A stretch of 64,000 bases of DNA from a virus: positions 26,555 to 90,554 of the IMG/VR virus record IMGVR_UViG_3300038558_000079. One strand, written 5' to 3'. Below, in pieces: positions 8,275 through 62,870 of the stretch (the stretch's first letter is position 1; the number at the start of each line of letters is the position of its first letter). The translations under genes and the position numbers were made by a program. Below the pieces are notes generated by a model, which saw nothing but the letters and a program-made list of their open reading frames with translations, did no database searches and was not told where the DNA came from.

Positions 8275-8384
8275 GCTGCATCACATACTCTGTATACTTC
8301 CTAGCTTCCGACATGTTGTATTCAATATCCATAAAGAAGTAAACATGTCGGAAGCTAGGAAGTAATACCAGTAAAGGGTACAGC
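8275..8384 (+). repeat. composite palindromic element, copy 1
   Basis: 31-bp GCT..AGC box, TTCCGACATGTT, 24-bp core, AACATGTCGGAA, 31-bp box; 23-bp perfect arms 8295-8317/8342-8364. Confidence 0.95.
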
Positions 8385-8459
8385 GTTTTATATCCCCATT
8401 TATTGAAAGTATGCTAAAACATAGTACAACAACACATAGAGCTACATAAGGTGTAAATA

Positions 8460-8488
8460 TTGACATTGCCTTTTTATTGTGCTAAACT
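8460..8488 (+). promoter_or_regulatory. sigma70-type promoter for dnaE
   Basis: TTGACA-17-TAAACT. Confidence 0.7.
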
Positions 8489-8527
8489 CTCTGTATAACT
8501 AATAAGCACCGCTGAGTTTTTCCTTTT

Positions 8528-11500
8528 ATGTCTAACAATAACAACGATTGTCATAGCATCACTTCTCCTAATTTGATGAGCCAAGTTATGAGAACTAGTA
8601 ATCGGAGCTACAGTCGAAAAACTACAGGTTTTGTAGGACTACATGCTCATTCCTACTTTAGTTTGCTCGATGCCTTTCGGAGTCCTACAGAGTTGGTAAA
8701 ATGTGTTGCGGAATTGGGACAACCCGCGATCGCACTTACAGACCACGGGGGGCTTTGGGGAACTGTTGAGTTAATGATAGCTTGCGAGAAGTATGGGATT
8801 ACACCCATAGCAGGAAATGAGATGTACCTTAAAGATGACGCTGCTACTCAACGTCTTAAAGAGTACGTGGGGGATGGCGATTACAAAGTTAAATCTCGAT
8901 ATCACCAATCGGTATTGGCGGTGTCACGAACAGGGTATGAAAATCTTTGTAAGCTCACCAGTGATTCATACCTAAAGACTTCAGAAAAAGTTAAAGGTAA
9001 GGTGTACCCCCTGGTAACCAAGGAAGACTTAGCAAGGCATAAAGAAGGATTAGTACTTACATCGGGGTGTTTAGCTGGTTTAGTATGTCAGGGTGTCTTG
9101 AGTGGTGATTTAGAATTTGCCAAGGATACTGCTAAGTGGTACAAAGACACCTTTGGGGATAACTATTATATAGAACTTCAAGACCACGGGATAGAGGACG
9201 ACCAACGTAAGGTAAACCTACATCTAGTTGCGATCGCTGAAGAATTAGAGATAGGGCTAGTTGTTACCGCAGATAGTCATTATGTGTACCCGTCACAAAA
9301 GGTGTCTCACAAGCATTTCCTCAGAATCAATAAGGGTGAAAAATTCTCTAATGTATACAAAGGAGATTTCTGGCATCCATCCGAATCAGAGATGGATTCA
9401 CGTCTGGTGTATCTCCCCGATTGGGCAAGGGAACAGGCAATGGACAACACTGTCTTAATTGCCCAGAAAGTACAACCGTACACACTAGCAAGTAAACCTG
9501 CTTCACCTAAGTTTACTCTACCTATGGGAACGACACCCGATGAGTATTTAGAGCAACTTTGTCTGAAAGGATTAGAGCGGATTGGAGAGAGTGCTAACCC
9601 CATATACATTGAGCGATTGTACTATGAATTGGGGATACTTAAACTTAAGGGACTAGCAGATTACTTTCTGATAGTCCAGGACTATGTGAACTGGGCAAAG
9701 GCTCAGAAGATACCAGTTGGAGTAGGACGCGGTTCAGGTGGCGGTGCATTGGCGTGTTACGTCCTGAATATTACTACCATTGACCCCATTAAGCACGGGT
9801 TGATATTTGAGAGATTTATTAATCCAGAACGCGAATCATATCCAGATATCGATGTTGACTTCTGTATGGAGCGCCGACATGAAGTAGTAGCCTACCTACA
9901 GGATAAGTATGGGGTCGGTAATGTTGCTAATATTATTACCTTCAATAAGATGGAATCAAGATCAGCTCTTAAGGATGCTGGTTGGGTGTTAGGTGTGGAC
10001 TTCACGGTACAAAACATATTCTCTAAGTCACTACCTGTAATCCGTGGGAAAAATATTAAGCTAAAAAATATCATTGAAGATCCAACATTAGCACCTGAGT
10101 TTATGGCACACTACGAAGCTAATGCAGTGGTACATTGCAATGTTACTTTTCGAGAATGGGTAGATTTAGCAGTTGCCTTAGAAGGTACAGTAAAATCTAC
10201 CGGGATTCATGCCTCTGGACTAATAATAGGAGATGAATCCTTAAGTAGTATTATCCCCTTACAGTGTACCCCTGATGGGACAATAACTTCTCAGTACAAC
10301 ATGAATGAAGTCGAATATATGGGTATCTTAAAAATGGATATTCTAGGGTTAAAAACTTTAACCATTCTCGACAAAGCCATGAAGTATATTGGCGGTGACT
10401 ATTACGACCTAGAGAAGATAGACATTAACGATAGTAATGCTCTAAACCTTCTAGCAACTACATCACCTGTGGGTATCTTTCAATTAGAAGCCGCTGAGAA
10501 AATGATCCATTTAGTCAAGCCGACTACATTCGAGGAGGTCGCTGATGTCACGTCTTTGATACGTCCAGGGTGTTTTGATATGAGTATGCACAATGAATAT
10601 ACAGCAGTCAAATTCGGGCATTCTGAACCTACATATTGTACAGAAAAACTAAGGGGTATCTTAGGTTCTACTCACTCACAGTGTCTCTATCAAGAACAGC
10701 TACTTAGGATATGCACCGAGATTGCAGGATTCTCACTCGGATATGCCGATAATGTACGGCGGGGATGTGGTAAGAAAAAGAAGGAAGTGTTAGAACCTCT
10801 TAAGGAGTCCTTTGTTAAAGGGTGCTTAGGTAATGGGGAGTCTCAGGAAGTCGCTGATGAACTATGGGAAATCATCTTAGCAAGTGCTGGTTACTCATTT
10901 AATGCCAGTCACAGCAAGGCATATACAATAATCTCCATGTATACTGCATGGGTGCGTTACTACTACCCGGCACAATTCTTTGCAGCGCTACTTTCAGGGC
11001 AGAAAGACGTTGAGAAATTTGCTGAATATAGTACGGCTTTAAAACTCCACAATTTGAAATTGATACCGCCCGATATCAACACTAGCGATAGTGACTTTTT
11101 ACCCATTAATGATGGTGTGTTGTTTGGGTTGGCTTATATCAATGGGTTAGGAGAAAAGACATTAGGGGATGTCTTCTCAGAACGCGCTAAAGGTAAATTC
11201 TTATCTCCGATTGACTTCTTTAGCAGGGTAAAAGTGTCCCAAGCAACAGCACAAAAGTTAATTAAGGCTGGAGCCTTTGATAGCTTGGAATCTAATCGAG
11301 GCAAACTTTTGGAGAATTTACCAGATATCTTTAATTGGCTATCAACACATCGCAAGTTTGCACAAAAGGAACAGACTACTCTGGCTATACCAGGAATAGA
11401 TTGGGGGAACTACCTGGTAGTACCTACACTTAAAGATTCCCCACAATTATCTCTTAGACAACGGCTTGAGAATGAGAAGGACTTACTAGGAATAGCTCTA

Positions 11501-11812
11501 ACAGGGCATATCCTGGATGAGTATAAGTTAGACGCTGTGGTTTTGAAGAATTTAGAAGTGGGGCAAGTATTAGAGGGTGTAATTGTAATTTCTGAAATGA
11601 GAAGTTATACCCAGAAAAATGGCGGTATTATGGGGTTTGTGACCTTAGAGGATATCTTGGGTAATAAGCTAAAGTGTACCGTATTCAGTAGTGCATGGTC
11701 TATCTCAAAAAGTTATATCCAAGTAAATACCCCATTGTATGTCAATGTGAAAATTGGTACATACAATGGGGAAATTAATGGGATTGTTAACCGAATTAAG
11801 AGACTAAATTAA
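8528..11812 (+). CDS. dnaE: DNA polymerase III alpha subunit, unsplit and intein-free
   Basis: PHP (HAHSYFSLLD, ALTDHG), GRGSG, PDIDVDF, KMDILGL, GYSFNASHS, C-terminal OB fold. Confidence 0.95.
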   Translation: MSNNNNDCHSITSPNLMSQVMRTSNRSYSRKTTGFVGLHAHSYFSLLDAFRSPTELVKCVAELGQPAIALTDHGGLWGTVELMIACEKYGITPIAGNEMYLKDDAATQRLKEYVGDGDYKVKSRYHQSVLAVSRTGYENLCKLTSDSYLKTSEKVKGKVYPLVTKEDLARHKEGLVLTSGCLAGLVCQGVLSGDLEFAKDTAKWYKDTFGDNYYIELQDHGIEDDQRKVNLHLVAIAEELEIGLVVTADSHYVYPSQKVSHKHFLRINKGEKFSNVYKGDFWHPSESEMDSRLVYLPDWAREQAMDNTVLIAQKVQPYTLASKPASPKFTLPMGTTPDEYLEQLCLKGLERIGESANPIYIERLYYELGILKLKGLADYFLIVQDYVNWAKAQKIPVGVGRGSGGGALACYVLNITTIDPIKHGLIFERFINPERESYPDIDVDFCMERRHEVVAYLQDKYGVGNVANIITFNKMESRSALKDAGWVLGVDFTVQNIFSKSLPVIRGKNIKLKNIIEDPTLAPEFMAHYEANAVVHCNVTFREWVDLAVALEGTVKSTGIHASGLIIGDESLSSIIPLQCTPDGTITSQYNMNEVEYMGILKMDILGLKTLTILDKAMKYIGGDYYDLEKIDINDSNALNLLATTSPVGIFQLEAAEKMIHLVKPTTFEEVADVTSLIRPGCFDMSMHNEYTAVKFGHSEPTYCTEKLRGILGSTHSQCLYQEQLLRICTEIAGFSLGYADNVRRGCGKKKKEVLEPLKESFVKGCLGNGESQEVADELWEIILASAGYSFNASHSKAYTIISMYTAWVRYYYPAQFFAALLSGQKDVEKFAEYSTALKLHNLKLIPPDINTSDSDFLPINDGVLFGLAYINGLGEKTLGDVFSERAKGKFLSPIDFFSRVKVSQATAQKLIKAGAFDSLESNRGKLLENLPDIFNWLSTHRKFAQKEQTTLAIPGIDWGNYLVVPTLKDSPQLSLRQRLENEKDLLGIALTGHILDEYKLDAVVLKNLEVGQVLEGVIVISEMRSYTQKNGGIMGFVTLEDILGNKLKCTVFSSAWSISKSYIQVNTPLYVNVKIGTYNGEINGIVNRIKRLN

Positions 11813-14800
11813 GCACTTATCAGTTTCACAAGCAACTAGTACATTAGGTAAATCAACGGTGTCATACTTCAGGAGCGCATCTTCAAAATTCTTAATAGAA
11901 CGCCGCCGTCTCACACCATCTACGAGAGTGTTGTAAACCTCTTCAGAGATAGGTTCAAATGGCATCCTAGGGAAAGTTTGTTTACTCTCAAACCGCGCTA
12001 GTAGCGCTGCTGAGATATATCCTTCGTCATCTTGAATTGCTTGATAGATGGCATTTCCCAAAGGCTCTATCTCAGCTTCTGTGAATTCCAGAGTGCTACT
12101 CGTATTGTGCCCCACATAATGTTTCTGGACTTGCATCATGAAGTCGAATTGTGCCAATGCTGAAAAATTCCCTACATCTATATCTGCAACACCCACTAAA
12201 GTAGACCATGGTGCAGCTACAGGAATCTCTACCAACCATTCAGTACATCTGGGGTCATAAGGATCATCCAGTAGGTTCCCAGATTCATCACGGCTAGATT
12301 GTGAGGGGATGACAGTATACCCGTAATCGATACAAGCCAGAGCGACCGGATTGTCTCTGGCAAAGGTAATCCGACGTATGTACCAGGTTCCCTTTGGAGG
12401 ATGCCACCCTGGTGAGCTATTTGATAGTAGCGATTGTGTTCCGCTAGGTTTTACGGTAGTACACCGATTAGGAGTTTTGAGATTATGACGTTTGCAGTAA
12501 TCTGCCACGTCATTCTCTACAAACTTTTTCCATTTCTTGAGACACCGTACCTCTACATCATGAAAGGTGTCACTCAAATATACACCCGTCTCAGTTTCAC
12601 CCCATTTACTAGCACGTCCTGCTTCCCACCAGCGAAGCCAATCAACACCGAAAAGTTTCACAAAGAAATCAAAAACCCCAGTCATTCCCACCCCTACAAT
12701 GGGGTCAAGTTCTCTGGATTCTCTCAACTTCTCATCAACAAATTCGTGGTGTAGTAATGAACATGCCCATAAGCTTGCTGCTTTAAAAGCACTTTTTTGT
12801 TCCTCAATATCAAAGGGGTCTATCTGCGACAGGTGGACTTCTGACAAGTTGCACAAGTTGTCTTGTAGGATTATCTCACCACATGGATTCAGGCCATAGA
12901 TATTCATCCGATAATCAATATCATCATCGCTAGAAGCAAAACTTCTCAGATACTCTTTAGCATCAGTAGGATTGGAGTTATAAAGTCTCAAGAATTCTAC
13001 CTTCTTTTCACTAGTATCCAGTAAATCTACATTGCTACGTGCGATCGCCTCTGGAGCATACTGTATTGCACCTTCGCCTGAATAATATTGGCTTCTCACA
13101 GCTTCAATACACTCAGCTTGTGTAGGTTTCTTATGAAATACCCTAGTGTGATTTGCCATTCTCAGGGCATCTTTATCGGGGTCAATTGTCCAATTGCCAT
13201 CTGAATCTACTTTCCAAAGATTTTCCTTAATCTTGTAGGAATCGGGGTCATTATCTGAAAATTGGCGCATTCCGGCACTATTAGATACCAACAATCCTTC
13301 ACACACAAATTCGTGTATGCTGGCAACTTCAATATCGAAAGTATGCGCTGTTCTTACTTCGTGTTCTATGGATTTAACCTTAACAGGCACTAAATCGGTT
13401 GTAGTTGGAACTAGTCTTTTTAATGTTGTGACAATGACCTGTTCTTGATGACCACCATACCTGTAGCGATAACTACTTACCGTGGGTTTTACCATCTCAA
13501 CCGGGAACCCGTGGTCTTTAAAAGACTTAGGGGTTTCTTTTTTATGGCTTAAATAATGTAAGGAATGCGTTGTTAAGAATGCAGAAGTTGCTTCAAAGGC
13601 ATTTTGCCCAACAGTTACCAATTCCCCTTCCCATTTGTTAGTGCGTTTCCTTAATGAGGAACACAAACGTGTAGTAATTGCTAGGGATGAATAAAGAGCT
13701 TGTACCTGTCTGAGAAAATCTTTATGTGTTGATGTTACTAAAACACCTTGCGAGTGACACCCATCGGCATCGGCTAACCCAGCTAAATATGCTTCGCGAA
13801 TTTCCTTAACTCCCATCAAAATACAATCGGGTATTGACATTGAAGTAAAAGGACGCTTGAAGTTGCTAAAATACTCGTTAAAGGATTTACTGTTGAACTG
13901 TAGCTCAAACGCTTTACTTTTGCGTTGTTCGGGTGTTGCAAGAGAGTAGTCATTAATCCCAAATTCACATGCCACGCTGATTAGTTGCTCAAGAATTTGT
14001 GGGTGTTGTTCAGGAATACTAAATCTGACATTTGTACCATCCGAGCCAACACATCCATTCCCATGTAAGTAGCCTAAGAAATACGCTACTTTGTTAGTTA
14101 ACGCTGGTATGGTGACGGTTTTTTTGTTTCTGGTTGATTGATTTTTGAATTCTGGTAATTCAGTGGGGATACCCGGTATAGACTGAGGGACAAAAACCAA
14201 ACGATCTCCTGGTTTTAAATCTTTAGCTTTTACCATTTTATACCCACCATAAAAATCACTTAATACTGCGATTTTATGTTCTGAAGTACATTCCAAAAAC
14301 CCGTCTTCTGTTTTAATTCGAGACAACGTTTGCACACCTTGATCGAAAAAGTTAGTAACTGGGTAAAAACCCTTACTCGTTAATACGCGGTCTCCAATTC
14401 GGATTTTTTGGATTGGTACTAATCCTAATTGTGTATGAACCAATGACTCACCAGGTAAACAGCGACGCACGTTACCCGATACTATTACTAATGATGGCTC
14501 ATCAATTAACAGACAACACTCAGCACTGTTCAGCTTACGTCCTACAGCACCATTGAGAATTTTTACAATACGCGGGTATAGCTGAGGTAGTAATGTCGGA
14601 TTAGCAATTCCACCGAACCCCTTTAACTTTTCACCTTGTTGTCGTATCCCGCTAATGTCTATCTCTACCTCTATATCACCATCACCAGCTAGCAGGTTAT
14701 CAGTTGCTAATTGGAGAAGGCTTAGATAGCTATCACACCAACCTTCACGAGAATCACCAACTAGAAATAGGTACTTCCTGTCACCTACTACTTTTACAAA

Positions 14801-15253
14801 AGTCCTTTCAGTTCTAGCTTTAGAACTGCCAAACTCCCCTGTGACTTTCACATTAATAGTGTTGAGAACCGGCGGTAACTTCTCTATATATCGAGGTTCA
14901 ATAACAGCGCCAGTACCACACCCTTGCATGGTAAGATTCATCATTAACTCGAAAGCTTTTAGGGTATCTAGGTTAGATGATGAGCAATTATAAGCGCCAT
15001 AGAAGTTTTTTGGAACCTTTACCCAGTCAGTTCCTCCTACCCAGAGCCAACGACCCGATGGTAAACTCTTAAGAGCTAGTGCGTTACTGTAAAGGAGGTG
15101 CTTTTCGTCATCAGTTAACTTGCCTAATTCGGCAATTCCGTGAGTGATTCTCTCACAGGTATCTTGCCAATTTTCGCGGGTGTTATCTGGTTTAAGTCTT
15201 GAATAGGTACGCGAGAAGACCGGAGCCGCGCATGGTGCATTATTGGGAAACAT
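11804..15253 (-). CDS. nrdJ: class II (adenosylcobalamin-dependent) ribonucleotide reductase with intein
   Basis: PSGRWLW, AYNCS, GLNPCGEI, TTVKPSGT, C-terminal CETDKC; cyanobacterial RTPR type. Confidence 0.92.
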   Translation of the reverse strand: MFPNNAPCAAPVFSRTYSRLKPDNTRENWQDTCERITHGIAELGKLTDDEKHLLYSNALALKSLPSGRWLWVGGTDWVKVPKNFYGAYNCSSSNLDTLKAFELMMNLTMQGCGTGAVIEPRYIEKLPPVLNTINVKVTGEFGSSKARTERTFVKVVGDRKYLFLVGDSREGWCDSYLSLLQLATDNLLAGDGDIEVEIDISGIRQQGEKLKGFGGIANPTLLPQLYPRIVKILNGAVGRKLNSAECCLLIDEPSLVIVSGNVRRCLPGESLVHTQLGLVPIQKIRIGDRVLTSKGFYPVTNFFDQGVQTLSRIKTEDGFLECTSEHKIAVLSDFYGGYKMVKAKDLKPGDRLVFVPQSIPGIPTELPEFKNQSTRNKKTVTIPALTNKVAYFLGYLHGNGCVGSDGTNVRFSIPEQHPQILEQLISVACEFGINDYSLATPEQRKSKAFELQFNSKSFNEYFSNFKRPFTSMSIPDCILMGVKEIREAYLAGLADADGCHSQGVLVTSTHKDFLRQVQALYSSLAITTRLCSSLRKRTNKWEGELVTVGQNAFEATSAFLTTHSLHYLSHKKETPKSFKDHGFPVEMVKPTVSSYRYRYGGHQEQVIVTTLKRLVPTTTDLVPVKVKSIEHEVRTAHTFDIEVASIHEFVCEGLLVSNSAGMRQFSDNDPDSYKIKENLWKVDSDGNWTIDPDKDALRMANHTRVFHKKPTQAECIEAVRSQYYSGEGAIQYAPEAIARSNVDLLDTSEKKVEFLRLYNSNPTDAKEYLRSFASSDDDIDYRMNIYGLNPCGEIILQDNLCNLSEVHLSQIDPFDIEEQKSAFKAASLWACSLLHHEFVDEKLRESRELDPIVGVGMTGVFDFFVKLFGVDWLRWWEAGRASKWGETETGVYLSDTFHDVEVRCLKKWKKFVENDVADYCKRHNLKTPNRCTTVKPSGTQSLLSNSSPGWHPPKGTWYIRRITFARDNPVALACIDYGYTVIPSQSSRDESGNLLDDPYDPRCTEWLVEIPVAAPWSTLVGVADIDVGNFSALAQFDFMMQVQKHYVGHNTSSTLEFTEAEIEPLGNAIYQAIQDDEGYISAALLARFESKQTFPRMPFEPISEEVYNTLVDGVRRRRSIKNFEDALLKYDTVDLPNVLVACETDKCLI
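13280..14461 (-). mobile_element. intein with LAGLIDADG homing endonuclease in NrdJ (394 aa)
   Basis: Begins C-LPGESLVHT after GNVRR and ends GLLVSN before S-AGMRQF; internal YFLGYLHGNG and AYLAGLADADG. Confidence 0.9.
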
Positions 15254-20006: not shown

Positions 20007-20007
20007 G

Positions 20008-20579: not shown

Positions 20580-20608
20580 ATAATAATTCAAATCTTCTAA
20601 GGTGTCAA
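20580..20608 (-). promoter_or_regulatory. sigma70-type promoter
   Basis: TTGACA-17-TATTAT. Confidence 0.7.
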
Positions 20609-20659: not shown

Positions 20660-20769
20660 GCTACATACCTTACTGGTATTAACTCTCAGCTTCCGACATG
20701 TTGTTTTCAATTACTATATAGGATAGAACATGTCGGAAGCCAGAAGGTGTACAGAGAGAGGGATTTAGG
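20660..20769 (+). repeat. composite palindromic element, copy 2
   Basis: Same architecture; 24-bp core GTTTTCAATTACTATATAGGATAG. Confidence 0.92.
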
Positions 20770-39232: not shown

Positions 39233-39670
39233 ATGACGTACACAGGGTTAGAAAGCGGTGAACCACGTCCTCTTGAGTACCAAGATATTATAGCTACTAC
39301 TACTAGTCAGTTAAAGCGAGCGGTAGGAAATAAAAATGAAATTTTGGCACTGCAAAAAGAAGTAAACAAACAGCGACGCGCTGCTGCTGCAATACTCAAA
39401 AGGCGATTTGACAAAATGTCACTTACCACTGAAGTTACTGAGGTGGTAAGTATCAAACGGGGGAAAGGAAGACCACCATTACCCAGAGAGAGACGAAAGT
39501 ACTCTAGACATATTGTTGCAACAGACAATCTGTGGGACGATCTACTACTCCTGTCTGACTTTTATGGAGTAGCTAGCCGTAGCGAGGTCATCGCGCAACT
39601 CGTAAAAGAGAAATTCGTGCGGTTGAAAGAACAGCACGCTGCAAATCCTGAAAACCCTTTCCCTATATAA
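39233..39670 (+). CDS. ribbon-helix-helix-like regulator with AT-hook-like motif
   Basis: KRGKGRPP followed by HIVATDNLWDDL...SRSEVIAQLV; divergent from the rep gene. Confidence 0.55.
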   Translation: MTYTGLESGEPRPLEYQDIIATTTSQLKRAVGNKNEILALQKEVNKQRRAAAAILKRRFDKMSLTTEVTEVVSIKRGKGRPPLPRERRKYSRHIVATDNLWDDLLLLSDFYGVASRSEVIAQLVKEKFVRLKEQHAANPENPFPI

Positions 39671-39757
39671 GTCCTGGCTTCCGACATGTTTACCTCTTTA
39701 TAGATTATGGATACAACTTGTCGGATGCTGAAATCTGTACACTGCATGGTTTCTAGG
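39648..39757 (-). repeat. composite palindromic element, copy 3 (core reversed)
   Basis: TTCCGACATGTT-24-AACTTGTCGGAT; core is the reverse complement of the consensus. Confidence 0.9.
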
Positions 39758-44554: not shown

Positions 44555-44650
44555 GACATGGGTTAATGTTAGTTAATACTAATTCTAACTTCAATATCAG
44601 AGGAATGTCAACAAAAATGCCTACCTACGGGTTCCCCCCCCACAACATTG

Positions 44651-44773
44651 GCTGCAATGTACAGTAGTGGAGAGTTCTAGCTTCCGACATGTTGTATCCA
44701 TTATCTATAATAGAAGTAAACATGTCGGAAGCTAGGAAGTATACAGGGTATTGGATGCAGCTTCCGACATGTT
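44651..44773 (+). repeat. composite palindromic element, copy 4 (three 12-bp arms)
   Basis: 25-bp core; a third TTCCGACATGTT follows the second 31-bp box. Confidence 0.95.
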
Positions 44774-48939: not shown

Positions 48940-49062
48940 GCTGGATGATGTACGGCGTTGGTGTTCCAGCTTCCGACATGTTGTATTCAATATCTATAAC
49001 AGAGGTAAACATGTCGGAAGCTACACCCAATACCCTGTATGCTTCCTAGCTTCCGACATGTT
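48940..49062 (+). repeat. composite palindromic element, copy 5 (three arms)
   Basis: 25-bp core; shares upstream TACCT.CGG.TTCCCCCCCCACAACATTG flank with copy 4. Confidence 0.95.
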
Positions 49063-52535: not shown

Positions 52536-52621
52536 CTGTCTCTCCAGTTTTTCTTGATACTCTCATTCTAGTACTACAACCGGGTAATGTCAACACATTT
52601 TAAAAGTATCTTCTCTAAATC

Positions 52622-52731
52622 GCTATAAGCCATACACTGCTTTACTTCTAGCTTCCGACATGTTTACCTCTATATAGATATTGAAAGCAACATGTCGGAA
52701 GCTGAAAACATTACCCCGTATACGCTGTAGC
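52622..52731 (-). repeat. composite palindromic element, copy 6 (core reversed)
   Basis: 24-bp core; right box overlaps the stop of ORF 52711..53544. Confidence 0.95.
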
Positions 52732-54113: not shown

Positions 54114-54170
54114 CATCCCGTTGACATATCTGCTAGTATTATATATGGTTATGATATAGCATTAGCAGGT

Positions 54171-54467: not shown

Positions 54468-54997
54468 TAGAGTCTAGATTTATATCCGAATTACAAGAAG
54501 TAATACCTTATGCTAATGAAAATACCTACATGGAGTTAGCACGGGGGATACAAGATAGTGGTGTACCTTTGCCATCTACTCTTGCTGAACTTCATGTGAT
54601 GATATTGGAGAGTGCGATCGCAGGAACGGCTAGAGAGTTAGGTAAGGCTAAGGTACAAACATTAGGGGAAGTCTTTAGTCAGAGTTATGTAGAGAATTTT
54701 GCTGACTGGTTAGAGGATACCGAGCCGTTACTGGTAACTAAGGATGAAGCGCTGCGCGAAGTGACTCTCAAGCTAATTCATAAAGTCGAAACTCTAAAAA
54801 GAGAGAGGACTTCTACTAAGAAGTCGGTAATTATGGCAATCCTTATGAATACTGTGCGGCTATGGGTAGCAGGAGTGGTATTCGGATTACTACTACACAA
54901 TTACCGCATCTTTAGCGGTGTAAAGGTAGTATTACTCTTTAGTAGTATAGCTAGTATTGTTAGCCCTATAGCCGTACTACTAGAGAGTGATAAGTAA
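54464..54997 (+). CDS. membrane protein
   Basis: Two C-terminal TM segments; ATGA coupling. Confidence 0.6.
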   Translation: MIESRFISELQEVIPYANENTYMELARGIQDSGVPLPSTLAELHVMILESAIAGTARELGKAKVQTLGEVFSQSYVENFADWLEDTEPLLVTKDEALREVTLKLIHKVETLKRERTSTKKSVIMAILMNTVRLWVAGVVFGLLLHNYRIFSGVKVVLLFSSIASIVSPIAVLLESDK

Positions 54998-56350
54998 ACT
55001 ACCTACACCAACCTGAGTACAGGTATGGTGTAGGCTTTCAGCAGCCCTGTACCAAATCGAATAAACTAGGTTGGAAGTACTCGACTTTCCGACATAATTC
55101 ACACGATAGGTACGAACCTCTAGGCTGGCTTACGGTCAGCCCCAAAAGTTTGATTACGTTGGCTCCATTAAAATCGGCATCGCCCTTCCAGTGGCAGTGT
55201 CCACAAGAGAAAGTCTTGCCACTACGGTAGGACTTTCCTTTTATTGGATGGATGTGCAAACACTTGTGGCAAGTCTGGCTTGTGTAGGCTGGATTGACTT
55301 TGATAATTTCAACTCCAGCACCAAGAGCTTTGTAGTCCAAGAACATTCGTAACTGAAAAAACGCCCAACTGTTAGATCGTCTGCGTTCAGTTTTGTTTCT
55401 TGGTTGCTCGTTTGTACGCTCTCGAATTCCTGTTAGGTCTTCGAGGGCAATTGAGTATTCAAACTGTTTTGCTCTACTAACAATGTGCTTACTGACGTTA
55501 TGGTTGACCCATGACTGGAAGCGCCTCTCCCGACCAGATAACCGTTGCAAAATCTGCCTAGCCCTACGTCTAGTTGACCTTGTGCCTTCTGTAGCCTTCT
55601 TTTGGAGAGATGCTCTTACCTTTGAATATTTGTCTCGAATTTCTGTTATTTGTTGTCCCGAAAAACTTTCGGACTCACTGGTTACAGCTACGTCTCTACG
55701 CCCAAAGTCCACCCCAATTACACCTTGGGATTTTTGAGGACTTGGAGCTTCATTCTTTACCTGAATATTGACCGAGTAAGTACCATTTTGATACTTAACC
55801 AGTGTTGCCGATGTTGGCGTAAAACCAGATAATTTTCCTTTCTGGTAACTACCAACATCAACTAGGAAACGCTCTCTCCCACCAACTAACGTTAGCGACA
55901 CTGACCAATCTTTCTCTCTAAAGGAGAAAATTCGTGCATCGTAATCAACAGAGGTTGGGAGAAACTTTTTAACGGGTTTGCTCATTCGCTTCGCTGTTTT
56001 GCGATTGGCACTCACCCGATTGATAGCACGGATAGCAAGGTTGGAAGCTAGCCCAAAACGTTCCCTCACTTCACCATAAACCTGATTTTGGATGGTTACG
56101 TTGTGGGTAATCTTGGGTTCTACAGCTTCGTTGATATGGTTGCAAGCACCCGCAAACGCTTGAAGGGTCGCATCTATCTTGGCAACCTGTTCGGGAGTCG
56201 GATTAATTTTGCAGACTATCGTCAACACTTGCTTTTCCATACCATGATTATATCACTGCAATGATTATTTGTGTCGCGCTACATCCTGTCCGCAATTCCT
56301 CTCATCACCAAATCGGAGATTATGGCGGGAGCCTCCTTGCGGTTGAAGGT
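54994..56350 (-). mobile_element. IS200/IS605-family element, tnpB only (IS1341-like)
   Basis: Right-end hairpin GCCTACACC..GGTGTAGG ending TTAC at 54994; left-end hairpin at ~56290-56345; left boundary approximate. Confidence 0.75.
55038..56240 (-). CDS. tnpB: TnpB RNA-guided nuclease
   Basis: RuvC D (GVDFG), E (IALED), D (DADFNGA); Zn ribbon TSQTCHKC..CGHC. Confidence 0.93.
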   Translation of the reverse strand: MEKQVLTIVCKINPTPEQVAKIDATLQAFAGACNHINEAVEPKITHNVTIQNQVYGEVRERFGLASNLAIRAINRVSANRKTAKRMSKPVKKFLPTSVDYDARIFSFREKDWSVSLTLVGGRERFLVDVGSYQKGKLSGFTPTSATLVKYQNGTYSVNIQVKNEAPSPQKSQGVIGVDFGRRDVAVTSESESFSGQQITEIRDKYSKVRASLQKKATEGTRSTRRRARQILQRLSGRERRFQSWVNHNVSKHIVSRAKQFEYSIALEDLTGIRERTNEQPRNKTERRRSNSWAFFQLRMFLDYKALGAGVEIIKVNPAYTSQTCHKCLHIHPIKGKSYRSGKTFSCGHCHWKGDADFNGANVIKLLGLTVSQPRGSYLSCELCRKVEYFQPSLFDLVQGC

Positions 56351-56361
56351 GAGCGTGCTAG

Positions 56362-56967
56362 CTAGTCACCTGTAATCTGCTTTTGTGTCTGTAACGAGTT
56401 AGAGAAGTTCTCTAGCTCTATTTTCGCTGCGTTGAGGGTGTGGTCGATCTCCTCTTGGAAACAAGTTTTGAGGTATTCGAGGTTACTAGCTAAGGTTCCT
56501 GAGATATTACCCGTCAGGCTAACGAGCCGCCGCTTATCGTCAGCGGTTAGTTTTGGTTTTTCGACTAACTTCGCTACTTCACTCTCTAACTCCTGTACTT
56601 TGGACTGCATGACTTTCAGGTAGTCGTTCAATTCCCCTTCAAATACCTCACGGGTATTGATTGGAGGACATTCTTCTATATACCCTTCTCCTTGACGATA
56701 GGTGAGAGTACACGGTGTCCCCTCACCTTGCCCGCTACTCATCACAAACTGTGCAAATTGAGCCAAGGACAACTCAACCTCCAGTATTGGTTTGTCAGCA
56801 CGATGCCAGTTACTGTTGAGTTTTCGACAGTGAGAGGCCGTACTTATTCTGAGTACGGCGGTCACCTCATGTTTCGCAGCACTACCAAAGAGGGGTTTTC
56901 CCCTACTTGAGTACCGTCGTGTTAGTGTGATAATACCGTAACTGGGGTGTTTGGTTGTGACTTCCAT
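56362..56967 (-). CDS. conserved phage hypothetical protein
   Basis: HPSYG...LFGS...EVELS..QFA...GEGTPCT; own promoter TTGACA-17-TAACAT at 56998-57026. Confidence 0.65.
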   Translation of the reverse strand: MEVTTKHPSYGIITLTRRYSSRGKPLFGSAAKHEVTAVLRISTASHCRKLNSNWHRADKPILEVELSLAQFAQFVMSSGQGEGTPCTLTYRQGEGYIEECPPINTREVFEGELNDYLKVMQSKVQELESEVAKLVEKPKLTADDKRRLVSLTGNISGTLASNLEYLKTCFQEEIDHTLNAAKIELENFSNSLQTQKQITGD

Positions 56968-57054
56968 TGTGCATCTCCTTACTCTTGATACCCCCCCATG
57001 TTACCTTTTGTGTGGGGGAATGTCAACACCTTTAAAATTCTGAGTTGCCAAATG

Positions 57055-57165
57055 CCTAGAAGTGTTACACTGTAAGCATCCTAGCTTCCGACATATTGTA
57101 TCCTTTATCTATAATAGAGGTAAACATGTCGGAAGCTGAGAACCTTATAGTGTATAGCCTGTAGG
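57055..57165 (+). repeat. composite palindromic element, copy 7
   Basis: 25-bp core; flanked on both sides by divergent TTGACA promoters 28 bp away. Confidence 0.93.
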
Positions 57166-57250
57166 GATTCAGAGATAAAAGTTTTGAAAAGTATTGACAT
57201 TGCCTTTGTCTTGATATATGATAGAGATATCAACCAGAGAGAGGAGAGGT

Positions 57251-57691
57251 ATGAACAACTTAACCATTACACCACAGGGCGATAACCTCTATACAGTGGT
57301 TATCGGAGGGATGAGCAAGGGGAAGATGCAAGATTGGGCATCTTTACTAGTAGGAGATGATGCGCTCGTCACCGAGCCAGAGGATGGTAACTGGAAGTAT
57401 GTCTTCGCAATTGGGAACGTTACACAAAAGGGTGTTGAAAAGCTTCGTGGGTATGACTACACCTTGCATCCAAGTAGTTGTACCCCAGAACTCTTAGAAG
57501 GGGGTGATGTCATCCCCAAAGATGTACCAGAACTGAAATCGGGTTTCCGATTCAGAAGGCGGGATGGATATATGGCGACTTACCTGTTCAAAGCCCAGCA
57601 GGGTTATTGCTTTATCACAGAAACAGAAGCCCGCCCACTTCTGATGGCGGTTAAAGAAGACGACTTAAGGGGCTTTCTATGCGCATCCTAG
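57251..57691 (+). CDS. hypothetical protein
   Basis: GAGGAGAGG RBS before ATG 57251; promoter TTGACA-17-TATGAT at 57194-57222. Confidence 0.65.
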   Translation: MNNLTITPQGDNLYTVVIGGMSKGKMQDWASLLVGDDALVTEPEDGNWKYVFAIGNVTQKGVEKLRGYDYTLHPSSCTPELLEGGDVIPKDVPELKSGFRFRRRDGYMATYLFKAQQGYCFITETEARPLLMAVKEDDLRGFLCAS

Positions 57692-57765
57692 CTGAAATAT
57701 TGCTCTGGTATGGCACATTAAGTGTAATGTGCTACCTAATACACCATTAACTACAAGGAATAACG

Positions 57766-58059
57766 ATGAATATTAAAATTGAAATCGATTGGAACAGCAT
57801 GGATTGGCAACAGTACAATCACTTACTATTTGGCGCTCATGCCCAGGTCGATGAAGCAAAATTAAGTCACCTACCTCCGAATTTCTCAGGATGGAATACA
57901 GGAGTTCTCATCCTACTTCCCGTGAAAATCACCCAAAATGGGGAATATACAGACATTGATGTAATGGGAGAGATCGTAGAAGTCCTCTACATCGATACCG
58001 TATCGTCCCCCTACAATGTAAGGCTAACAGTTAAGATGCTGAAGCCTTACACGCTATAA
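57766..58059 (+). CDS. hypothetical protein
   Basis: 97 aa with AAGGA RBS. Confidence 0.6.
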   Translation: MNIKIEIDWNSMDWQQYNHLLFGAHAQVDEAKLSHLPPNFSGWNTGVLILLPVKITQNGEYTDIDVMGEIVEVLYIDTVSSPYNVRLTVKMLKPYTL

Positions 58060-58161
58060 GCTACTGCTAGTGGTGGTGTGCATTGAATGTTAGTTAAAAC
58101 ACCACTTACTCAGAACTAAGCCGCCAATCACTGGCGGCTTTAAAATGTTCATTGAAAAGTA

Positions 58162-58365
58162 TCAAGATGAGATATGTGGGAATATACAGTATATATCTAT
58201 AGGTTTATCTATCCCCTCTAACTTAACTGCATACCCTGAACCTACCGGGTAATTCGTAAGCACATATTCTACCTTTGCAATATATGGTGTCAAACTGCCA
58301 TAAGTACAACCGACAGAATTCCCTTTTTTTAAGCTTTTTACCCATTCAATTGTATCGATAATCAT
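58162..58365 (-). CDS. hypothetical protein (own promoter)
   Basis: 67 aa; TTGACA-17-TAAAAT at 58395-58423. Confidence 0.6.
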   Translation of the reverse strand: MIIDTIEWVKSLKKGNSVGCTYGSLTPYIAKVEYVLTNYPVGSGYAVKLEGIDKPIDIYCIFPHISS

Positions 58366-58596
58366 TGTTGTCTTTACCTTATGCTGATACTTCTATTTTA
58401 GTGTAAAGGTAACCAGATGTCAAGAGTTTAAGCTTTAACCGTATCTGAGAGAACGAAGTGTAGAACTATCAACTTACTGGTGTTTTTAAGTATTCATTGA
58501 AATTCCCAAATGCCCTCTAGAAAACTTTTCGCGTGACTTTCTAGCTTGTGCCCCTTAACGGGAAATCAGGTGTTTTTGGCACTTGGCGAAAACTCT

Positions 58597-58719
58597 AACA
58601 TGTCGGAAGCCGTACCCGATACCCTGTATACTTTTCAGCTTCCGACATGTTGTGTTCAATATCTATAATAGGATACAACATGTCGGAAGCTAGGAAGTAA
58701 TACCAGTAAGGTGTACAGC
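58597..58719 (+). repeat. composite palindromic element, copy 8 (three arms)
   Basis: Extra AACATGTCGGAA arm on the left; outer flank is the near reverse complement of the copy-4 right flank. Confidence 0.95.
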
Positions 58720-58815
58720 GTTTTCGGGAAGTGACTTTTGAAAATGTGATATTTCACCCCACTCTGGTATACTATTGTCACTACTACTAATGGTATACTA
58801 GAGAAAAAGTAGAGA

Positions 58816-60276
58816 GTGAAAATGCCAAAGTACACGCCGCATTACAAACCTAATCAGTTAATTTGTGGAACCGGAACAATAGCGGTAATCTCAGGATGGA
58901 CTGTGAAGGATACGATTGCTAAAAAGTTAGAATCTCATGAGTATGCTGTCATCGGACAATTGTATAGTCCTACTAGAGGGATTAGCTTTTTGATTAGAAA
59001 CCTATTGGCTAACCCTCATGTGACTAACCTAGTAATTCTTGGCTGTACAAAAGAGGATAAAAGTTCTGGTAGCTGTCAATGCCTGATTGATTTCTTGCGT
59101 AATGGTTTTCGAGCAGGTATCAGTGATACAGGACGTGAGACTTGGATAATTAACTCTAAGATTACTGGCTATATCGATATTGAAATTACTGCTGATGCTC
59201 TTGAAAGATTCCGACAATCTGTAGTGTGGAGTGAGGCGAAGTCAGTTAGCGAAGTGGTAGATAAAATTAGGGAAGGCGTGAGAGTAATTGAACCTTATGG
59301 TGAACCCATGATATTCCCTATTACAGAAACATTACCCCGCGTATTGCCGGGAACACGCTATGGTCATCGGATTGAGGGGAAAACTATTGCTGATACTTGG
59401 GTTAAAATAATTCATCGGATTAAGACTACGGGTACAATTAGACCAACTGGATATGACGGTCAATGGCAAGAGTTAATCGATTTGATGGCAGTTGTTACCG
59501 ATGAGCCTGCGGGATTCTATTTTCCAGAACCGAATTATCTTCCCTGCGATCGCGCATTCATCACCGAATATATCCCACATATACTCTGTGATGCTCCAAT
59601 TAGAGAAGGTATTAAGTACACCTATGGTCAACGTTTACGCTCTTGGTTTGGTGTAGACCAGATTGAACAAGTGATTCAGAAGCTAATTGGTGAGATTGAC
59701 GCTGCTAGCGCTGTGATGTCGCTATGGGATACTCAAGATCATATCAAGGGCGGTAGTCCGTGCCTCAATCACATTTGGTTGAGGGTAGTTGATAATGAAC
59801 TCTCTCTTACGGCTGTATTCCGGAGTAATGATATGTTCTCAGCTTGGGTTAGTAATGCCATGGGTTTAAGAGCATTACAGGGGCACATCAGAGATGAAAT
59901 CGCTAACCGTAGCGAGTACAATCTCACTTTAGGGGCATTGATCGTAATCTCACAGTCTGCGCATATATACGATGATTGCTGGGACAATGCAGACATGCTG
60001 ATTAAGAATCATTATGGTAAAGGTAAACGGGATTACTATGACGCTAGCGGTAATTTTATTATTGAGGTATGTGATAATGAGATAATTGTTGCCCAGACTT
60101 CACCGGGTAGCGGGGAAGTGGTGAGGACATATAACGGAAAAATCCCCCTGACGATAATCAGAGAGATTGCTGCTAATTCACCTGCGATCGCACCTGAGCA
60201 TATAGGATACTTAGGAATTGAGTTGGAGCGTGCTAGGGTACTGGGGTCTGGGTATCGACAAGATGGATTACCTTGA
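58816..60276 (+). CDS. thyA: thymidylate synthase, cyanobacterial multidomain type
   Basis: YTYGQRL, SPCL, FRSNDM..N, SAHIY; extra N-terminal (MtrA-like) and C-terminal (DUF4346-like) domains. Confidence 0.8.
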   Translation: MKMPKYTPHYKPNQLICGTGTIAVISGWTVKDTIAKKLESHEYAVIGQLYSPTRGISFLIRNLLANPHVTNLVILGCTKEDKSSGSCQCLIDFLRNGFRAGISDTGRETWIINSKITGYIDIEITADALERFRQSVVWSEAKSVSEVVDKIREGVRVIEPYGEPMIFPITETLPRVLPGTRYGHRIEGKTIADTWVKIIHRIKTTGTIRPTGYDGQWQELIDLMAVVTDEPAGFYFPEPNYLPCDRAFITEYIPHILCDAPIREGIKYTYGQRLRSWFGVDQIEQVIQKLIGEIDAASAVMSLWDTQDHIKGGSPCLNHIWLRVVDNELSLTAVFRSNDMFSAWVSNAMGLRALQGHIRDEIANRSEYNLTLGALIVISQSAHIYDDCWDNADMLIKNHYGKGKRDYYDASGNFIIEVCDNEIIVAQTSPGSGEVVRTYNGKIPLTIIREIAANSPAIAPEHIGYLGIELERARVLGSGYRQDGLP

Positions 60277-60378
60277 AGCAATTTTTAGCTTAACGCCGGA
60301 AGCCTCACGCCATATCTGTACTCAGATTGGCGTGAGATGGATAGGCGGGTTGTCGGAGGTACGGAGGCAACCAATAAA

Positions 60379-60789
60379 TTAATCGGGCGTGTCCTGATTC
60401 TCTATATACTTCTTTAATGCTGAAACTGTTACTCCACCACATGATGCAATGAAGTAAGAGCCATTCCATAAAACATCTTTGTGGTAGAACTCATCAACCC
60501 TACTTTCAAACTCAGACCGTAGCTTTCGACTGGTTACGGTTTTGATGTTATTAACCAACTTACTGAGTTCAATCCCTGGATGGTACTGAAATAGCAAGTG
60601 AACATGATTTTCCTCACCGTTGAACTCAATCACCTTGCATTCCCATTTTTCTAGTAAACTCTCGAATATTTCATGCAAGCGGTCTAGCATCTCTTTGGTG
60701 AATAACTTACGGCGGTATTTTGTGGTCAACACCAAATGAGCCTTTAAGTCTGACACAGAACGACCTCTGGAAACAAAATCATTTTTCAT
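60379..60789 (-). CDS. tnpA: IS200-family Y1 transposase
   Basis: HLVLTTKYRR, HVH, W..SYF, YIENQ. Confidence 0.95.
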   Translation of the reverse strand: MKNDFVSRGRSVSDLKAHLVLTTKYRRKLFTKEMLDRLHEIFESLLEKWECKVIEFNGEENHVHLLFQYHPGIELSKLVNNIKTVTSRKLRSEFESRVDEFYHKDVLWNGSYFIASCGGVTVSALKKYIENQDTPD

Positions 60790-60846
60790 CCCGCAAAGCC
60801 CCTTAATTGGTGTATACTAAAACAGTAACATCAATTAAAAGAGACA

Positions 60847-62076
60847 GTGAGAACAGCCTACCAGTACCGACTACGCCCAACAAAACAGCAAGCTGCCAAC
60901 TTTGACAGATGGCTTGTAATGCTGTGTAGTCAGTACAATTACCTATTAGCTGACAGGTTTAATTGGTATGAGCAAAACCGTTCTCCTGTTAATGCTTGTC
61001 CTCTAGTTTGTCACCTCCCAGAACTGAGAGACAAACCAGATTATTATTCGCAAAAGAAAACCTTACCTTTACTCAAGAAAACTCATCCTTGGTATGGAGA
61101 AATTTACTCACAAGTCCTTCAAGATGTAGTTAAGCGAGTTAAAGTGACGTTCGACAGGTTCCTCAAAGGGGACAGTAACGGTAAGCGTAGCGGCAAGCCG
61201 AGATTTAAAGCTCGTAATCGCTATCGCACGTTTACTTATCCTCAGATGAAAGATGGGTGCTTACAGGGTAATCTGATTAACTTACCAATGCTCGGAAAAG
61301 TTAAGGTTGTTCTGCATCGACCTATTCCGGATGGATTTAAAATCAAAACCGCATCTGTCACCAAGAAAGCTGACGGGTTTTACCTCACACTATCTTTAGA
61401 AGACAAAACGGTTCCTGAGATTAAGCCAGATTTCAATCCGGATAAAATTACTGGAATTGATGTTGGATTGAAGGAATTTCTAACAACCTCTGAAGGCGAA
61501 ACGGTTTCTATTCCGACTCTTTACCGCAAATCACAAAAACGTTTACGTGTTATCCAAAAACGAGTATCACGCCGAAAAAAGGGAAGTAACGGTAGACTTA
61601 AAGCTATCAAGCAACTAGGGAAACAGCACAAAAAGGTTGCAGACAAGCGCAAGGATTTTCATTTCAAAACAGCTAATTGGCTGTTATCAAAATATGACGT
61701 AATTGCTCATGAAGACTTAAACATCAAAGGACTTGCGCGTACCCGATTGGCTAAATCTGTGTTGGATGCTGGGTGGTCAAGCTTTCTGTCGATACTAACA
61801 AACAAAGCCGAAAAAGCTGGTTTGTTGGTTGTCTCAGTCAGCGCCCATAACACTTCACAAGATTGCTCCAATTGTGGCGAGAAAGTACCAAAGAAACTGC
61901 ATATTCGGTGGCATGACTGTCCTTATTGTGGGTGTAGTCTAGACCGAGATCATAATGCGGCGATAAATATAAAGAATAGAGCGGTAGGGCAGTCCGTTCT
62001 TAAAGCCAAACGCCTCCTAAGCAATAGCCGGATTGGTTTGGAAGCCTACACCGTACCTGTACCCAGGTCGGTGTAG
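60847..62076 (+). CDS. tnpB: TnpB RNA-guided nuclease
   Basis: GIDVG, IAHED, DRDHNAA; Zn ribbon. Confidence 0.95.
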
Positions 62077-62666
62077 GAGCTGTCACTGTCCGTTAACCTT
62101 GTATTCCGTAGCTTTGCACCCGTTAGATTAGCACCCGTAAGATTAGCATCCGTTAGTTTAGCACCCGTCAGTTTTGCCTCCATCAGTTTAGCGTCTGTCA
62201 GGTTAGCACCTGTCAGGTTAGCACTACTTAGATTAGCCCCCTTGAGGTCAGTAACCTTCAGATCAGCATCTGTCAGGTCAGCATCCATCAAGTTAGATTC
62301 CGTCAGGCGGGAACCTGTCAGGTCAGCACCCGTTAGGTTAGCACCCTTGAGGTTAGCACCCTTAAGGTTAGCAAACCTAATGTTAGCCCCCGTAAGGTTA
62401 GCCCCCGTCAGGTCAGTCCCCGTCAGGTCAGCAACCTTAAGGTTAGCGACCTTAAGATCGGCATCCTCAAGGGTAGCACCCGTCAGGTTAGTACCCGTCA
62501 GGTTAGCACCCTTGAGGTTAGCACCCTTAAGGTTAGCACCTCTTAAGTCAGCCCCACTTAAGTCTGATCTGCTCAGTTCAATACCTGATAAGTCTTTACC
62601 ACTCAGAGTGAGACCAGACCAATCTACACCGCTGAAGTTTAGACCGTCTAAATCTTGTATTCTCAT
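62046..62666 (-). CDS. pentapeptide-repeat protein (C-terminus supplied by IS end)
   Basis: A(D/N)LxG repeats throughout; promoter TTGACA-16-TATGCT at 62696-62723. Confidence 0.9.
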
Positions 62667-62749
62667 AATCTTTTTCCTTTACTCTTGACACTTTCAGCAT
62701 ACCTCAGTAGGTAGGAATGTCAATACTTTGTAAAAAGATTGTTCTAACC

Positions 62750-62870
62750 CTTGCACCCCTTGTGGTATGGTATTTCTGTTTTTCGACATATTGCAAAAAT
62801 CATAGTACCTGGATAAAACATATCGGAGCCTGAATCCCCTACGGTGAGGTAATTCAGGCTCCGATATGTT
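62750..62870. repeat. composite palindromic element, copy 9 (diverged)
   Basis: TTTCGACATATT-24-AACATATCGGAG-30-CTCCGATATGTT; 19-bp perfect IR 62817-62835/62852-62870. Confidence 0.75.

Follow-up and report, generated by a model that had tools for sequence, protein, structure and literature searches.

In eukaryotic viruses an AT-rich centre may be flanked by inverted initiator sites or lie within dispersed imperfect palindromes, often between divergent genes; such elements are known as the homologous regions (hr) of baculoviruses and oriS of herpes simplex virus, where they are bound by IE-1 and UL9 and serve as enhancers and/or origins. Among phages, the C1 operators of P1 and the conserved inverted repeats of phiC31 occur as approximately 15-20 scattered copies near early promoters and constitute one regulon, the operators being single 17-bp sites at or near the promoter, and stoperators are likewise single sites, oriented with transcription. 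In Cluster A mycobacteriophages stoperators form a dispersed operator regulon of the L5 gp71 repressor type (PMC9283540). The archaeal halovirus HF2 carries 58-bp and 29-bp intergenic repeats that are themselves promoters (PMC8707807). The element considered here is a family of composite palindromes, termed cassettes, in the virus record IMGVR_UViG_3300038558_000079, of which the right-hand 64 kb (64,000 nucleotides; positions 26,555 to 90,554 of the 90,554-bp record) constitutes the window analysed; positions below are those of the window unless given as record positions. The cassettes are read, tentatively and with somewhat less than an even chance of being right, as dispersed protein-binding control modules for a subset of host-type promoters, with recombination between the copies as a by-product.

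Identification and architecture of the cassettes

The 12-bp arm TTCCGACATGTT is matched with up to two mismatches at 26 sites in the window against 4.87 expected, a number reached in none of 100 shuffled sequences (largest count 11). Twenty-two of these matches fall within the nine places where a first-pass annotation had reported palindromic copies, and the remaining four are isolated, with two mismatches each (3992, 12839, 35620 and 55087). Across the whole record 32 exact arms are found, 16 per strand, with none for the reversed control, and the arms group into 17 cassettes, nine in the window and eight upstream of it. The window copies align with invariant arm columns. Searching with an nhmmer profile of 16 copies returns, besides these 16, copy 9, which is diverged (E 9e-4), and four orthologues located in related contigs; ~586 kb of unrelated loci contain no match. 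Arm matches, alignment and profile thus agree on the nine copies first annotated, and the genome-wide family is real, but its membership had been counted too low. The window cassettes are as follows.

8275..8384, c1: box, arm 8306-8317, 24-nt core in orientation A, arm 8342-8353, box; in the gap separating the structural operon (-) from the divergent DnaE-type polymerase gene (+)
20660..20769, c2 (family-1 subtype): arms 20691-20702 and 20727-20738, core A; flanked by the 3' end of the tape-measure gene (4517 aa) and by the promoter of a 179-aa gene
39648..39757, c3: arms 39679-39690 and 39715-39726 (two mismatches in the latter), core reversed (B); upstream of the primase-helicase gene region
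44651..44773, c4: three arms, 44682-44693, 44719-44730 and 44762-44773, core A; between the divergent helicase operon (-) and C5-methylase/resolvase genes (+)
48940..49062, c5: three arms, 48971-48982, 49008-49019 and 49051-49062, core A; upstream of a 99-aa gene, 48534-48833 (-)
52622..52731, c6: arms 52653-52664 and 52689-52700, core reversed (B)
57055..57165, c7, the most symmetric copy: arms 57086-57097 (one mismatch) and 57123-57134, core A; outward TTGACA promoters begin 59 bases past both arms
58597..58719, c8: three arms, 58597-58608, 58640-58651 and 58677-58688, core A
62750..62870, c9, diverged: arms 62781-62792, 62817-62828 and 62859-62870, two mismatches each

The centre of a cassette consists of an arm on the plus strand, a core and an arm on the minus strand. 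The core is 24 nt long in nine copies and 25 nt in eight, with 20-33% GC against 41.5% for the genome, and owes its asymmetry to a small off-centre palindrome, CTAT(A)ATAG, which lies 11 nt from one arm and 5 nt from the other. The asymmetric AT-rich core of 24/25 bp is therefore borne out over all 17 copies, as are the third arm described for c4, c5, c8 and c9, which lies at a spacing of 31 bp (30 bp in c9), and the reversal of the core in c3 and c6; the core of c9 is too diverged to be oriented. Outward of the arms lies a 31-bp box with the loose consensus GCTAGRA.GTATACAG.GTA...AGC. The dyad GCT-N8-TAC-NNN-GTA-N8-AGC originally proposed for this box survives as a loose tendency, with GCT present in 27 of all 34 boxes (14 of the 18 in the window), but not as a fixed rule, given that TAC at positions 12-14 is found in 15 (window 9), GTA at 18-20 in 17 (window 12) and AGC at 29-31 in 18 (window 10). 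Many copies continue past the box as G(A/T)TT..GAGAAC..AAGTTTTGAAAA, with a TTGACA -35 box overlapping this tract or lying 10 bp beyond it, and the conserved flank from arm to -35 reads AGCG(A/T)TT..GAGAAC..AAGTTTTGAAAA(TGTG)TTGACA. Many copies are thus flanked by a UP-like tract that faces outward and by a TTGACA-N17-TAnnnT promoter of consensus type, and the ~110-bp unit of the first-pass annotation is too short: the conserved unit spans ~170-190 bp, extending ~60 bp beyond each arm and, in many copies, into the promoter.

The left and right boxes of the same cassette are no more alike (identity 0.467) than boxes paired across cassettes (0.484; P 0.77 by permutation), which indicates that no palindrome is selected beyond the arm plus GCT. 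This lack of an extended palindrome would fit site recognition rather than a long hairpin, and a long cruciform or hairpin running through the 31-bp boxes is ruled out by the same comparison. Coding from the ATG inside the arm was likewise rejected, the reading frames stopping after a few codons in the copies read by eye.

On their left flanks c4 (44640-44660) and c5 (48930-48950) carry a C8 run, and a third copy at record ~1030 carries G6. This flank with its homopolymer run is conserved and lies between the cassette and the next promoter; slippage can vary the length of such runs.

Genomic placement and flanking promoters

With genes called as the longest open reading frames (ORFs), and after four ORFs of 61-69 aa overlapping the cassettes themselves had been dropped, all 17 cassette centres are non-coding, which agrees with the essentially intergenic placement first annotated. 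Only 8.96% of 48-bp windows are fully non-coding, giving P ~1.5e-18. Every cassette-bearing gap adjoins a gene start, six being divergent, nine tandem and two nominally convergent, of which one follows a truncated duplicated ORF and the other hinges on a doubtful 145-aa ORF.

A loose promoter scan finds an outward site within 110 bp of 13 of the 17 cassettes. A strict scan for TTGACA-N16-18-TAnnnT returns 31 rows, 26 of them intergenic and representing 25 distinct sites, of which 12, at ten of the 17 cassettes, lie within 107 bp of a cassette, where 28.6% would be expected from non-coding space (P 0.03). Distances between cassette and promoter recur at ~50, 58-60 (four sites), 71, 83 (two sites) and 93 bp (two sites), and these recurring distances, together with the conserved sequence from arm to -35, indicate that cassette and promoter form one unit in many copies. 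The promoter-like sites next to window cassettes are listed below.

8460..8488 (+): TTGACA-N17-TAAACT, polymerase gene; -35 box 106-107 bp from the right arm of c1
20580..20608 (-): TTGACA-N17-TATTAT, gene 20008-20547 (-); -35 box 82-83 bp from the left arm of c2
44582..44611 (-): TTGACA-N18-TAGAAT, helicase operon; 70 bp from the left arm of c4
52565..52593 (-): TTGACA-N17-TAGAAT, gene 52308-52535 (-); 59 bp from the left arm of c6, preceded by TTTTAAAATGTG
56998..57026 (-): TTGACA-N17-TAACAT, gene 56362-56967 (-); 59 bp from the left arm of c7
57194..57222 (+): TTGACA-N17-TATGAT, gene 57218-57691 (+); 59 bp from the right arm of c7, preceded by TTTTGAAAAGTA
62696..62723 (-): TTGACA-N16-TATGCT, pentapeptide-repeat gene 62046-62666 (-); 57 bp from the left arm of c9

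Strong promoters also occur without a cassette, among them those upstream of the tape-measure gene and the Csx3 gene, and cassettes are therefore dispensable for promoter strength and mark a subset of promoters. Six of the 17 cassettes are situated between divergent -35 boxes, where no predicted promoter would transcribe them, a placement which argues for a role at the level of DNA. In tandem settings the core runs sense to the downstream gene in five cases and antisense in five, with one (c9) unorientable. Core orientation appears to be free, being unrelated to the direction of the neighbouring gene and flipped in one c1 orthologue.

Two further promoter-like sites were observed. The gene at 46788-47114 (-), a homologue of Csx3 (Pfam E 1.9e-28), has no cassette and is preceded by a TTGACA-N17-TATAAT promoter that scores a perfect 12/12 and has TG upstream; Csx3 belongs to a CRISPR ring-nuclease family, and the homologue is possibly an early anti-type-III-CRISPR gene. 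At 8213-8221 (-), upstream of the structural operon, TGCTACACT resembles an extended -10 without a -35 and is invariant in all four relatives, which points to a late promoter that depends on an activator and lies on the opposite side of c1.

Conservation in relatives and absence from host-type genomes

Three metagenome contigs (L011, L012 and L013) are collinear with the window at 86-89% nucleotide identity. An orthologue of c1 is located upstream of the polymerase gene in all three, and one of c2 in L011, the sole contig to reach that position. The four c1 sequences agree in the arms with a mean pairwise identity of 0.96 and 1.00 and in the polymerase promoter with 0.95; the boxes reach 0.69-0.76, the core 0.65 and the remaining spacer DNA 0.44-0.67. 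The arms are thus conserved among relatives like promoter hexamers.

Outside this lineage the arm pair is absent. No exact match was found in one genome for each of 185,579 species or in IMG/VR contigs, nor in five candidate host genomes when up to three mismatches were permitted. The 15-mer arm with up to one mismatch is likewise absent from those five genomes and, in 301 cyanobacterial genomes, occurs at most twice per genome, the same as the reversed control. A host repetitive extragenic palindromic (REP) sequence or miniature inverted-repeat transposable element (MITE) is ruled out by the absence of the arm pair from the searched host-type genomes. Scanning of the genome, its relatives and hosts, as had been proposed with the original annotation, accordingly yields the 17 cassettes and four orthologues and no arm pair in host-type genomes, and with the c1 and c2 positions kept, the element does not behave as a member of a host MITE/REP family lacking positional conservation.

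Mosaicism among the copies

The copies are mosaics that exchange segments, the breakpoints falling at the arms. The right flank of c1 in the window matches that of c8 at 34 of 40 positions, while matching its own orthologues at only 21-27 of 40, and the right flanks of c8 and c1 resemble each other accordingly. In the copy at record 941 the left flank is homologous to that of c8, the core has the opposite orientation and the right flank, unrelated to that of c8, is the reverse complement of the left flank of c5. In L012 the core of c1 is inverted between unchanged arms and homologous flanks. This core matches the window c3 core in the same orientation at 23 of 24 positions and the reverse complement of the window c1 core at 20 of 24, which makes conversion by a c3-like copy no less likely an origin than a flip in place. 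Contigs of related strains carry different core letters at c6 (after the left arm) and at c7; these come from four DNA runs analysed as assembled contigs, which break at cassettes, drop minor variants and are no reliable guide to core orientation or rearrangement. Near cassettes, two joints link opposite strands; with sides as short as 42 and 75 letters, they are possibly artefacts of the repeat.

Upstream of the window, at record 2630-5140 (L009), a ~1.5-kb tandem duplication comprises paralogous small genes together with two cassettes, the second copy terminating in a remnant, 13 codons long, of the gene downstream.

The phage and its gene content

The virus record is classed as linear and ~71% complete. 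Scans of four ORF sets (54, 48, 34 and 31 ORFs, many small ones without a family) against Pfam and PHROGs identify a tailed phage with an HK97-type capsid protein, protease, portal and terminase, and a 4517-aa tape-measure protein carrying an M23 peptidase domain. A DnaE-type polymerase, ribonucleotide reductase, Prim-Pol primase-helicase and two other helicases are also encoded, along with a C5 methylase, a resolvase, an exonuclease, the Csx3 homologue and two pentapeptide-repeat proteins. The 1357-aa primase-helicase (35055-39128) matches PHROGs annotated as 'replication origin binding' (E 2.3e-14) in addition to Prim-Pol. Mobile genes comprise two TnpA+TnpB elements and two solitary TnpB. 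No phage RNA polymerase is found among the scanned ORFs, a 1035-aa ORF being a tail protein.

The TnpB of the IS605-type unit at 60379-62076 has 88-92% identity with copies from Coleofasciculus, Allocoleopsis, Microcoleus and related filamentous cyanobacteria, and the nearest cellular relatives of the polymerase are cyanobacterial; the record would thus represent a phage of filamentous cyanobacteria, the host being inferred from these likenesses. Phages in GenBank are distant relatives only (polymerase at most 35% and capsid at most 30% identity). Protein searches reveal nearer polymerase relatives at 71% (P0003) and 60% (P0004), and viral-contig scans guided by the polymerase, the polymerase alignment or the portal yielded no relatives.

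Proposed function

Ordinary gene regulation is the most probable function of this robust and lineage-conserved element. Among the four functions suggested by the first-pass annotation a global regulon fits best, in view of the placement at gene starts, the fixed register of many copies with sigma-70-type promoters and an arm conservation equal to that of the hexamers. For origins and for centromere or translocase-loading sites, also suggested there, the analysis gives no positive evidence. In the proposed mechanism the asymmetric 12-15-bp arm, (AGC)TTCCGACATGTT, would be the recognition site of one sequence-specific DNA-binding protein, probably phage-encoded since the arm pair is absent from the searched host-type genomes. 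Inverted arm pairs would be held at 24/25 bp across an easily bent AT-rich core and at 31 bp across a loosely dyadic spacer, and these fixed spacings could let the bound protomers touch and form one nucleoprotein complex per operon boundary. Such a complex, predicted from the promoter consensus to lie ~95-107 bp upstream of the flanking start sites, may switch or time the neighbouring promoters together, whether by repression, activation or insulation; the promoters concerned would mostly serve replication, nucleotide-metabolism and small genes without known function. Seventeen near-identical arm pairs would also be expected to recombine or convert at the arms, and the shuffled flanks and flipped cores would then be a by-product and not a selected function.

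Several observations weigh against this proposal. The comparison with relatives covers two of the 17 cassette positions (c1 and c2), and gene conversion among copies could inflate the conservation of the arms. The statistical link between promoters and cassettes is modest: within 110 bp no outward promoter is detectable for four of the 17 cassettes, and 13 of the 25 strict intergenic promoter sites have no cassette within 107 bp. A distance of ~100 bp between the arms and the start downstream is large for a simple repressor. The only clear DNA-binding gene, coding for a 75-aa XRE-type helix-turn-helix protein (7015-7242, +), adjoins no cassette, and the candidate binders remain leads only. One of these weak leads is a 277-aa protein (52711-53544) with an HTH_3 match at E 0.12, atlas scores of 0.83-0.87 and homologues only in this phage lineage, for which the AlphaFold model is poor (mean pLDDT 52) and all helical; the other is the 99-aa protein at 48534-48833, with RelB at E 0.18 and one RHH_9 atlas row at 0.90. 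As to its own setting, the XRE-type gene is situated on the opposite strand inside the structural gene block.

The transcriptional programmes of phages of filamentous cyanobacteria are almost unknown. With no RNA polymerase of its own among the scanned ORFs and host-type promoters throughout, this phage needs a way to sort its promoters into classes, and the 17-copy cassette, which marks about half of the strong promoters, offers a 48-bp probe for the regulator and a predicted regulon. If the binder is new, arm and protein would make a compact orthogonal control part for cyanobacteria. The copies also illustrate how dispersed regulatory repeats may drive mosaicism within a phage genome through flank swapping and core flipping.

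Alternative explanations

The alternative that survives best, although it is considered unlikely, is that the cassette is itself a regulated promoter, in which CCGACA in the left arm would act as a -35-like or activator element (at ~-30), TATAAT in the core, 16 bp downstream, as the -10 and the right arm as an operator over the start, so that a flip of the core would re-aim transcription as in an inverton. Arm and hexamer stand at a constant spacing, CCGACA-N16-TATAAT scores 10/12 in c4, c7 and c8, the core is the only asymmetric part and lies in both orientations among the copies and at the orthologous c1, and a promoter in the core could serve the right-hand gene of c4, which has no TTGACA-type promoter. 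Inverted arms, as in an inverton, are present, and the -10-like TATAAT occurs in nine of the 17 cores; the other eight lack it through loss of the last T, the most conserved -10 base, and the nine cores of 24 nt are shortened precisely in the 3' part of the hexamer, to TATATA or TATAAA. Further points against a promoter in the core are that tandem cores run as often against the downstream gene as with it (five each), that the c1 flip is tolerated, that no invertase or other site-specific recombinase is found among the scanned ORFs and that the promoter scan as a whole gives no excess (49 sites against 42.8 in shuffles, standard deviation 6.5). To our knowledge, invertible segments are also far longer than 24 bp.

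Improbable, and more so than a promoter in the core, are multiple replication origins or enhancer-origins, with the arms as initiator sites and the AT-rich core unwound by the 1357-aa primase-helicase. The architecture, and it alone, resembles a viral origin or hr, with inverted sites around a 24/25-bp core of 20-33% GC; six of the 17 cassettes are found between divergent promoters, cassettes often lie beside replication genes and the primase-helicase has the origin-binding and Prim-Pol matches given above. An AT-rich core of just 24-25 bp and the absence of iterons other than the arms speak against origins, as does the cumulative GC skew, which tracks the gene strand and displays no feature at cassettes, and the fixed register with promoter flanks would be left unexplained. 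We know of no precedent for 17 origins in 90 kb of a tailed phage. A combined version, to which a similarly small chance is given, would make the cassettes the phage counterpart of baculovirus hr or herpes oriS, with one protein controlling the flanking promoters and opening the DNA for replication and a flippable core choosing the side served; if true, a tailed phage would possess an enhancer/origin system that is genome-wide and switchable by orientation.

Recombination as the selected function has a still smaller chance. The arms would here be linkers for the exchange of modules, through short-homology annealing or a site-specific enzyme, and the mosaic copies with breakpoints at the arms (the flanks shared by record 941, c8 and c5, the c1-c8 flank and the L012 core), the other core letters of related strains at c6 and c7 and the exonuclease and Holliday-junction resolvase encoded by the phage would be consistent with it. 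Any dispersed repeat recombines, though, so mosaicism is no proof of selection; the three relatives keep full collinearity of genes around c1 and c2, and neither the 24/25- and 31-bp spacings nor the promoter register would be explained. Of the recombination sites first suggested, the exchange of segments at arms can be retained but not the 11-9-11 tyrosine-recombinase core. The arm geometry of dif, lox or att sites is not found, as the N8 parts of the boxes are unconserved, the implied spacer is 9 bp and the 12-bp arms stand 24/25 or 31 bp apart, and the Pfam and PHROGs scans reveal no integrase, invertase or resolvase-type recombinase, tyrosine or serine, among the ORFs.

Hairpins in RNA or single-stranded DNA, acting as processing, stabilising or terminating signals at operon ends or as priming signals on single strands, are about as improbable as selected recombination. 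Single-strand folding is strong (z -5.2 to -8.9 in five copies, stems of 15-26 pairs), which follows from the arms themselves being inverted; 11 of the 17 cassettes are downstream of a gene able to read into them, and inversion of the loop is typical of hairpin-forming DNA. Six of the 17 cassettes, between divergent promoters, would nevertheless escape transcription, left and right boxes have no extra complementarity and the invariant arms provide no covariation. A terminator role is opposed by the 24-25-nt loop and the missing T-run, c4-c9 overlap none of the 21 terminator-like sites detected in 44001-64000, and no Rfam 15 family reaches its gathering score in the whole window.

Non-autonomous mobile elements (MITE, palindrome-associated transposable elements (PATE) or REP-like) spread by phage or host IS200/IS605 transposases are very improbable: the cassettes are palindromic, intergenic and multi-copy in a record with two TnpA+TnpB and two solitary TnpB elements, one TnpB being absent in related strains, but the arms show no relation to the IS605-type ends, which a solitary TnpB element shares, the bases flanking the arms (AGC left, GCT right) are inverted and continue the palindrome in place of a direct target-site duplication, no empty site exists (c1 present in 4/4 and c2 in 2/2 collinear genomes), the arm pair is missing from the searched host-type genomes and IMG/VR contigs, and no REP-associated tyrosine transposase (RAYT) is flanked by the repeats, both Y1_Tnp genes pairing with tnpB in IS605-type units and the nearest cassettes lying ~165 bp to 1.7 kb off, mostly with other genes between.

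Mobile genes and other features of the genome

TnpB guide RNAs aimed at cassettes were considered and rejected, as the four tnpB 3' flanks share only a 13-15-nt common promoter motif (..TATTGACATT..) and not the arms. The solitary TnpB element at 55038-56240 (-) is missing in related strains, with X2 and X6 joining 54995 to 56360 and X4 joining 54997 to 56355, which makes it a recent insertion here. At 60379-62076 a complete IS605-type unit comprises divergent Y1 TnpA and TnpB genes; X2 depth drops from ~25-35 to 0.8-3 across the unit, and run X4, which has little phage content, provides 100%-identical contigs over it, suggesting that the unit is also present in the host.

Within the ribonucleotide reductase gene (11804-15253, -) a ~1.19-kb in-frame segment at 13277-14462 is shared with L012 and absent from L011. 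It coincides with the part of the protein matching an unknown PHROG rather than the reductase, and is probably an intein or other selfish insert. The two pentapeptide-repeat genes are located at 62046-62666 and 62890-63717 (-), and in related strains the first is interrupted by numerous skips and back-joins, indicating that the number of repeats varies between strains.

Comparison with known systems

In the literature searched the arm string is matched only by unrelated primers, and no described counterpart of the arm-core-arm-spacer layout, with its alternating third arm and orientation-free core, was found there. The cassette is no member of the systems compared here. REP sequences, bacterial interspersed mosaic elements (BIME) and their RAYT, and the MITE/PATE of IS200/IS605, are alike in being intergenic, palindromic and multi-copy in genomes with Y1 transposase genes, whereas the cassettes have no copies in the searched host-type chromosomes, no target duplication and no empty sites, and the insertion sequence ends are unrelated to them. 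With hr and oriS the cassettes share geometry only, as read from the sequence. They differ from the operators of P1 C1 and phiC31 in their composite arm-core-arm-spacer geometry and flipping core.

Stoperators have in common with the cassettes a short asymmetric intergenic site repeated across a phage genome, through which one phage protein controls many units, and such a site is present here as 32 exact 12-mers in 17 clusters. The arms, in contrast, occur only as inverted pairs or alternating triplets and are not oriented with transcription; they are set at fixed spacings of 24/25 and 31 bp around a conserved AT-rich core, mostly upstream of promoters, and neither a repressor nor lysogeny functions are recognised in the phage. 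The HF2 repeats (PMC8707807) are similarly conserved, contain AT-rich motifs, are confined to intergenic regions, keep their positions in related viruses and are tied to transcription initiation. The cassettes differ from them in being composite palindromes with clear promoters outside and a core without a consistent -10 box. In their logic the cassettes would therefore appear closest to the dispersed operator regulons of phages, with the promoter-bearing repeats of HF2 also close.

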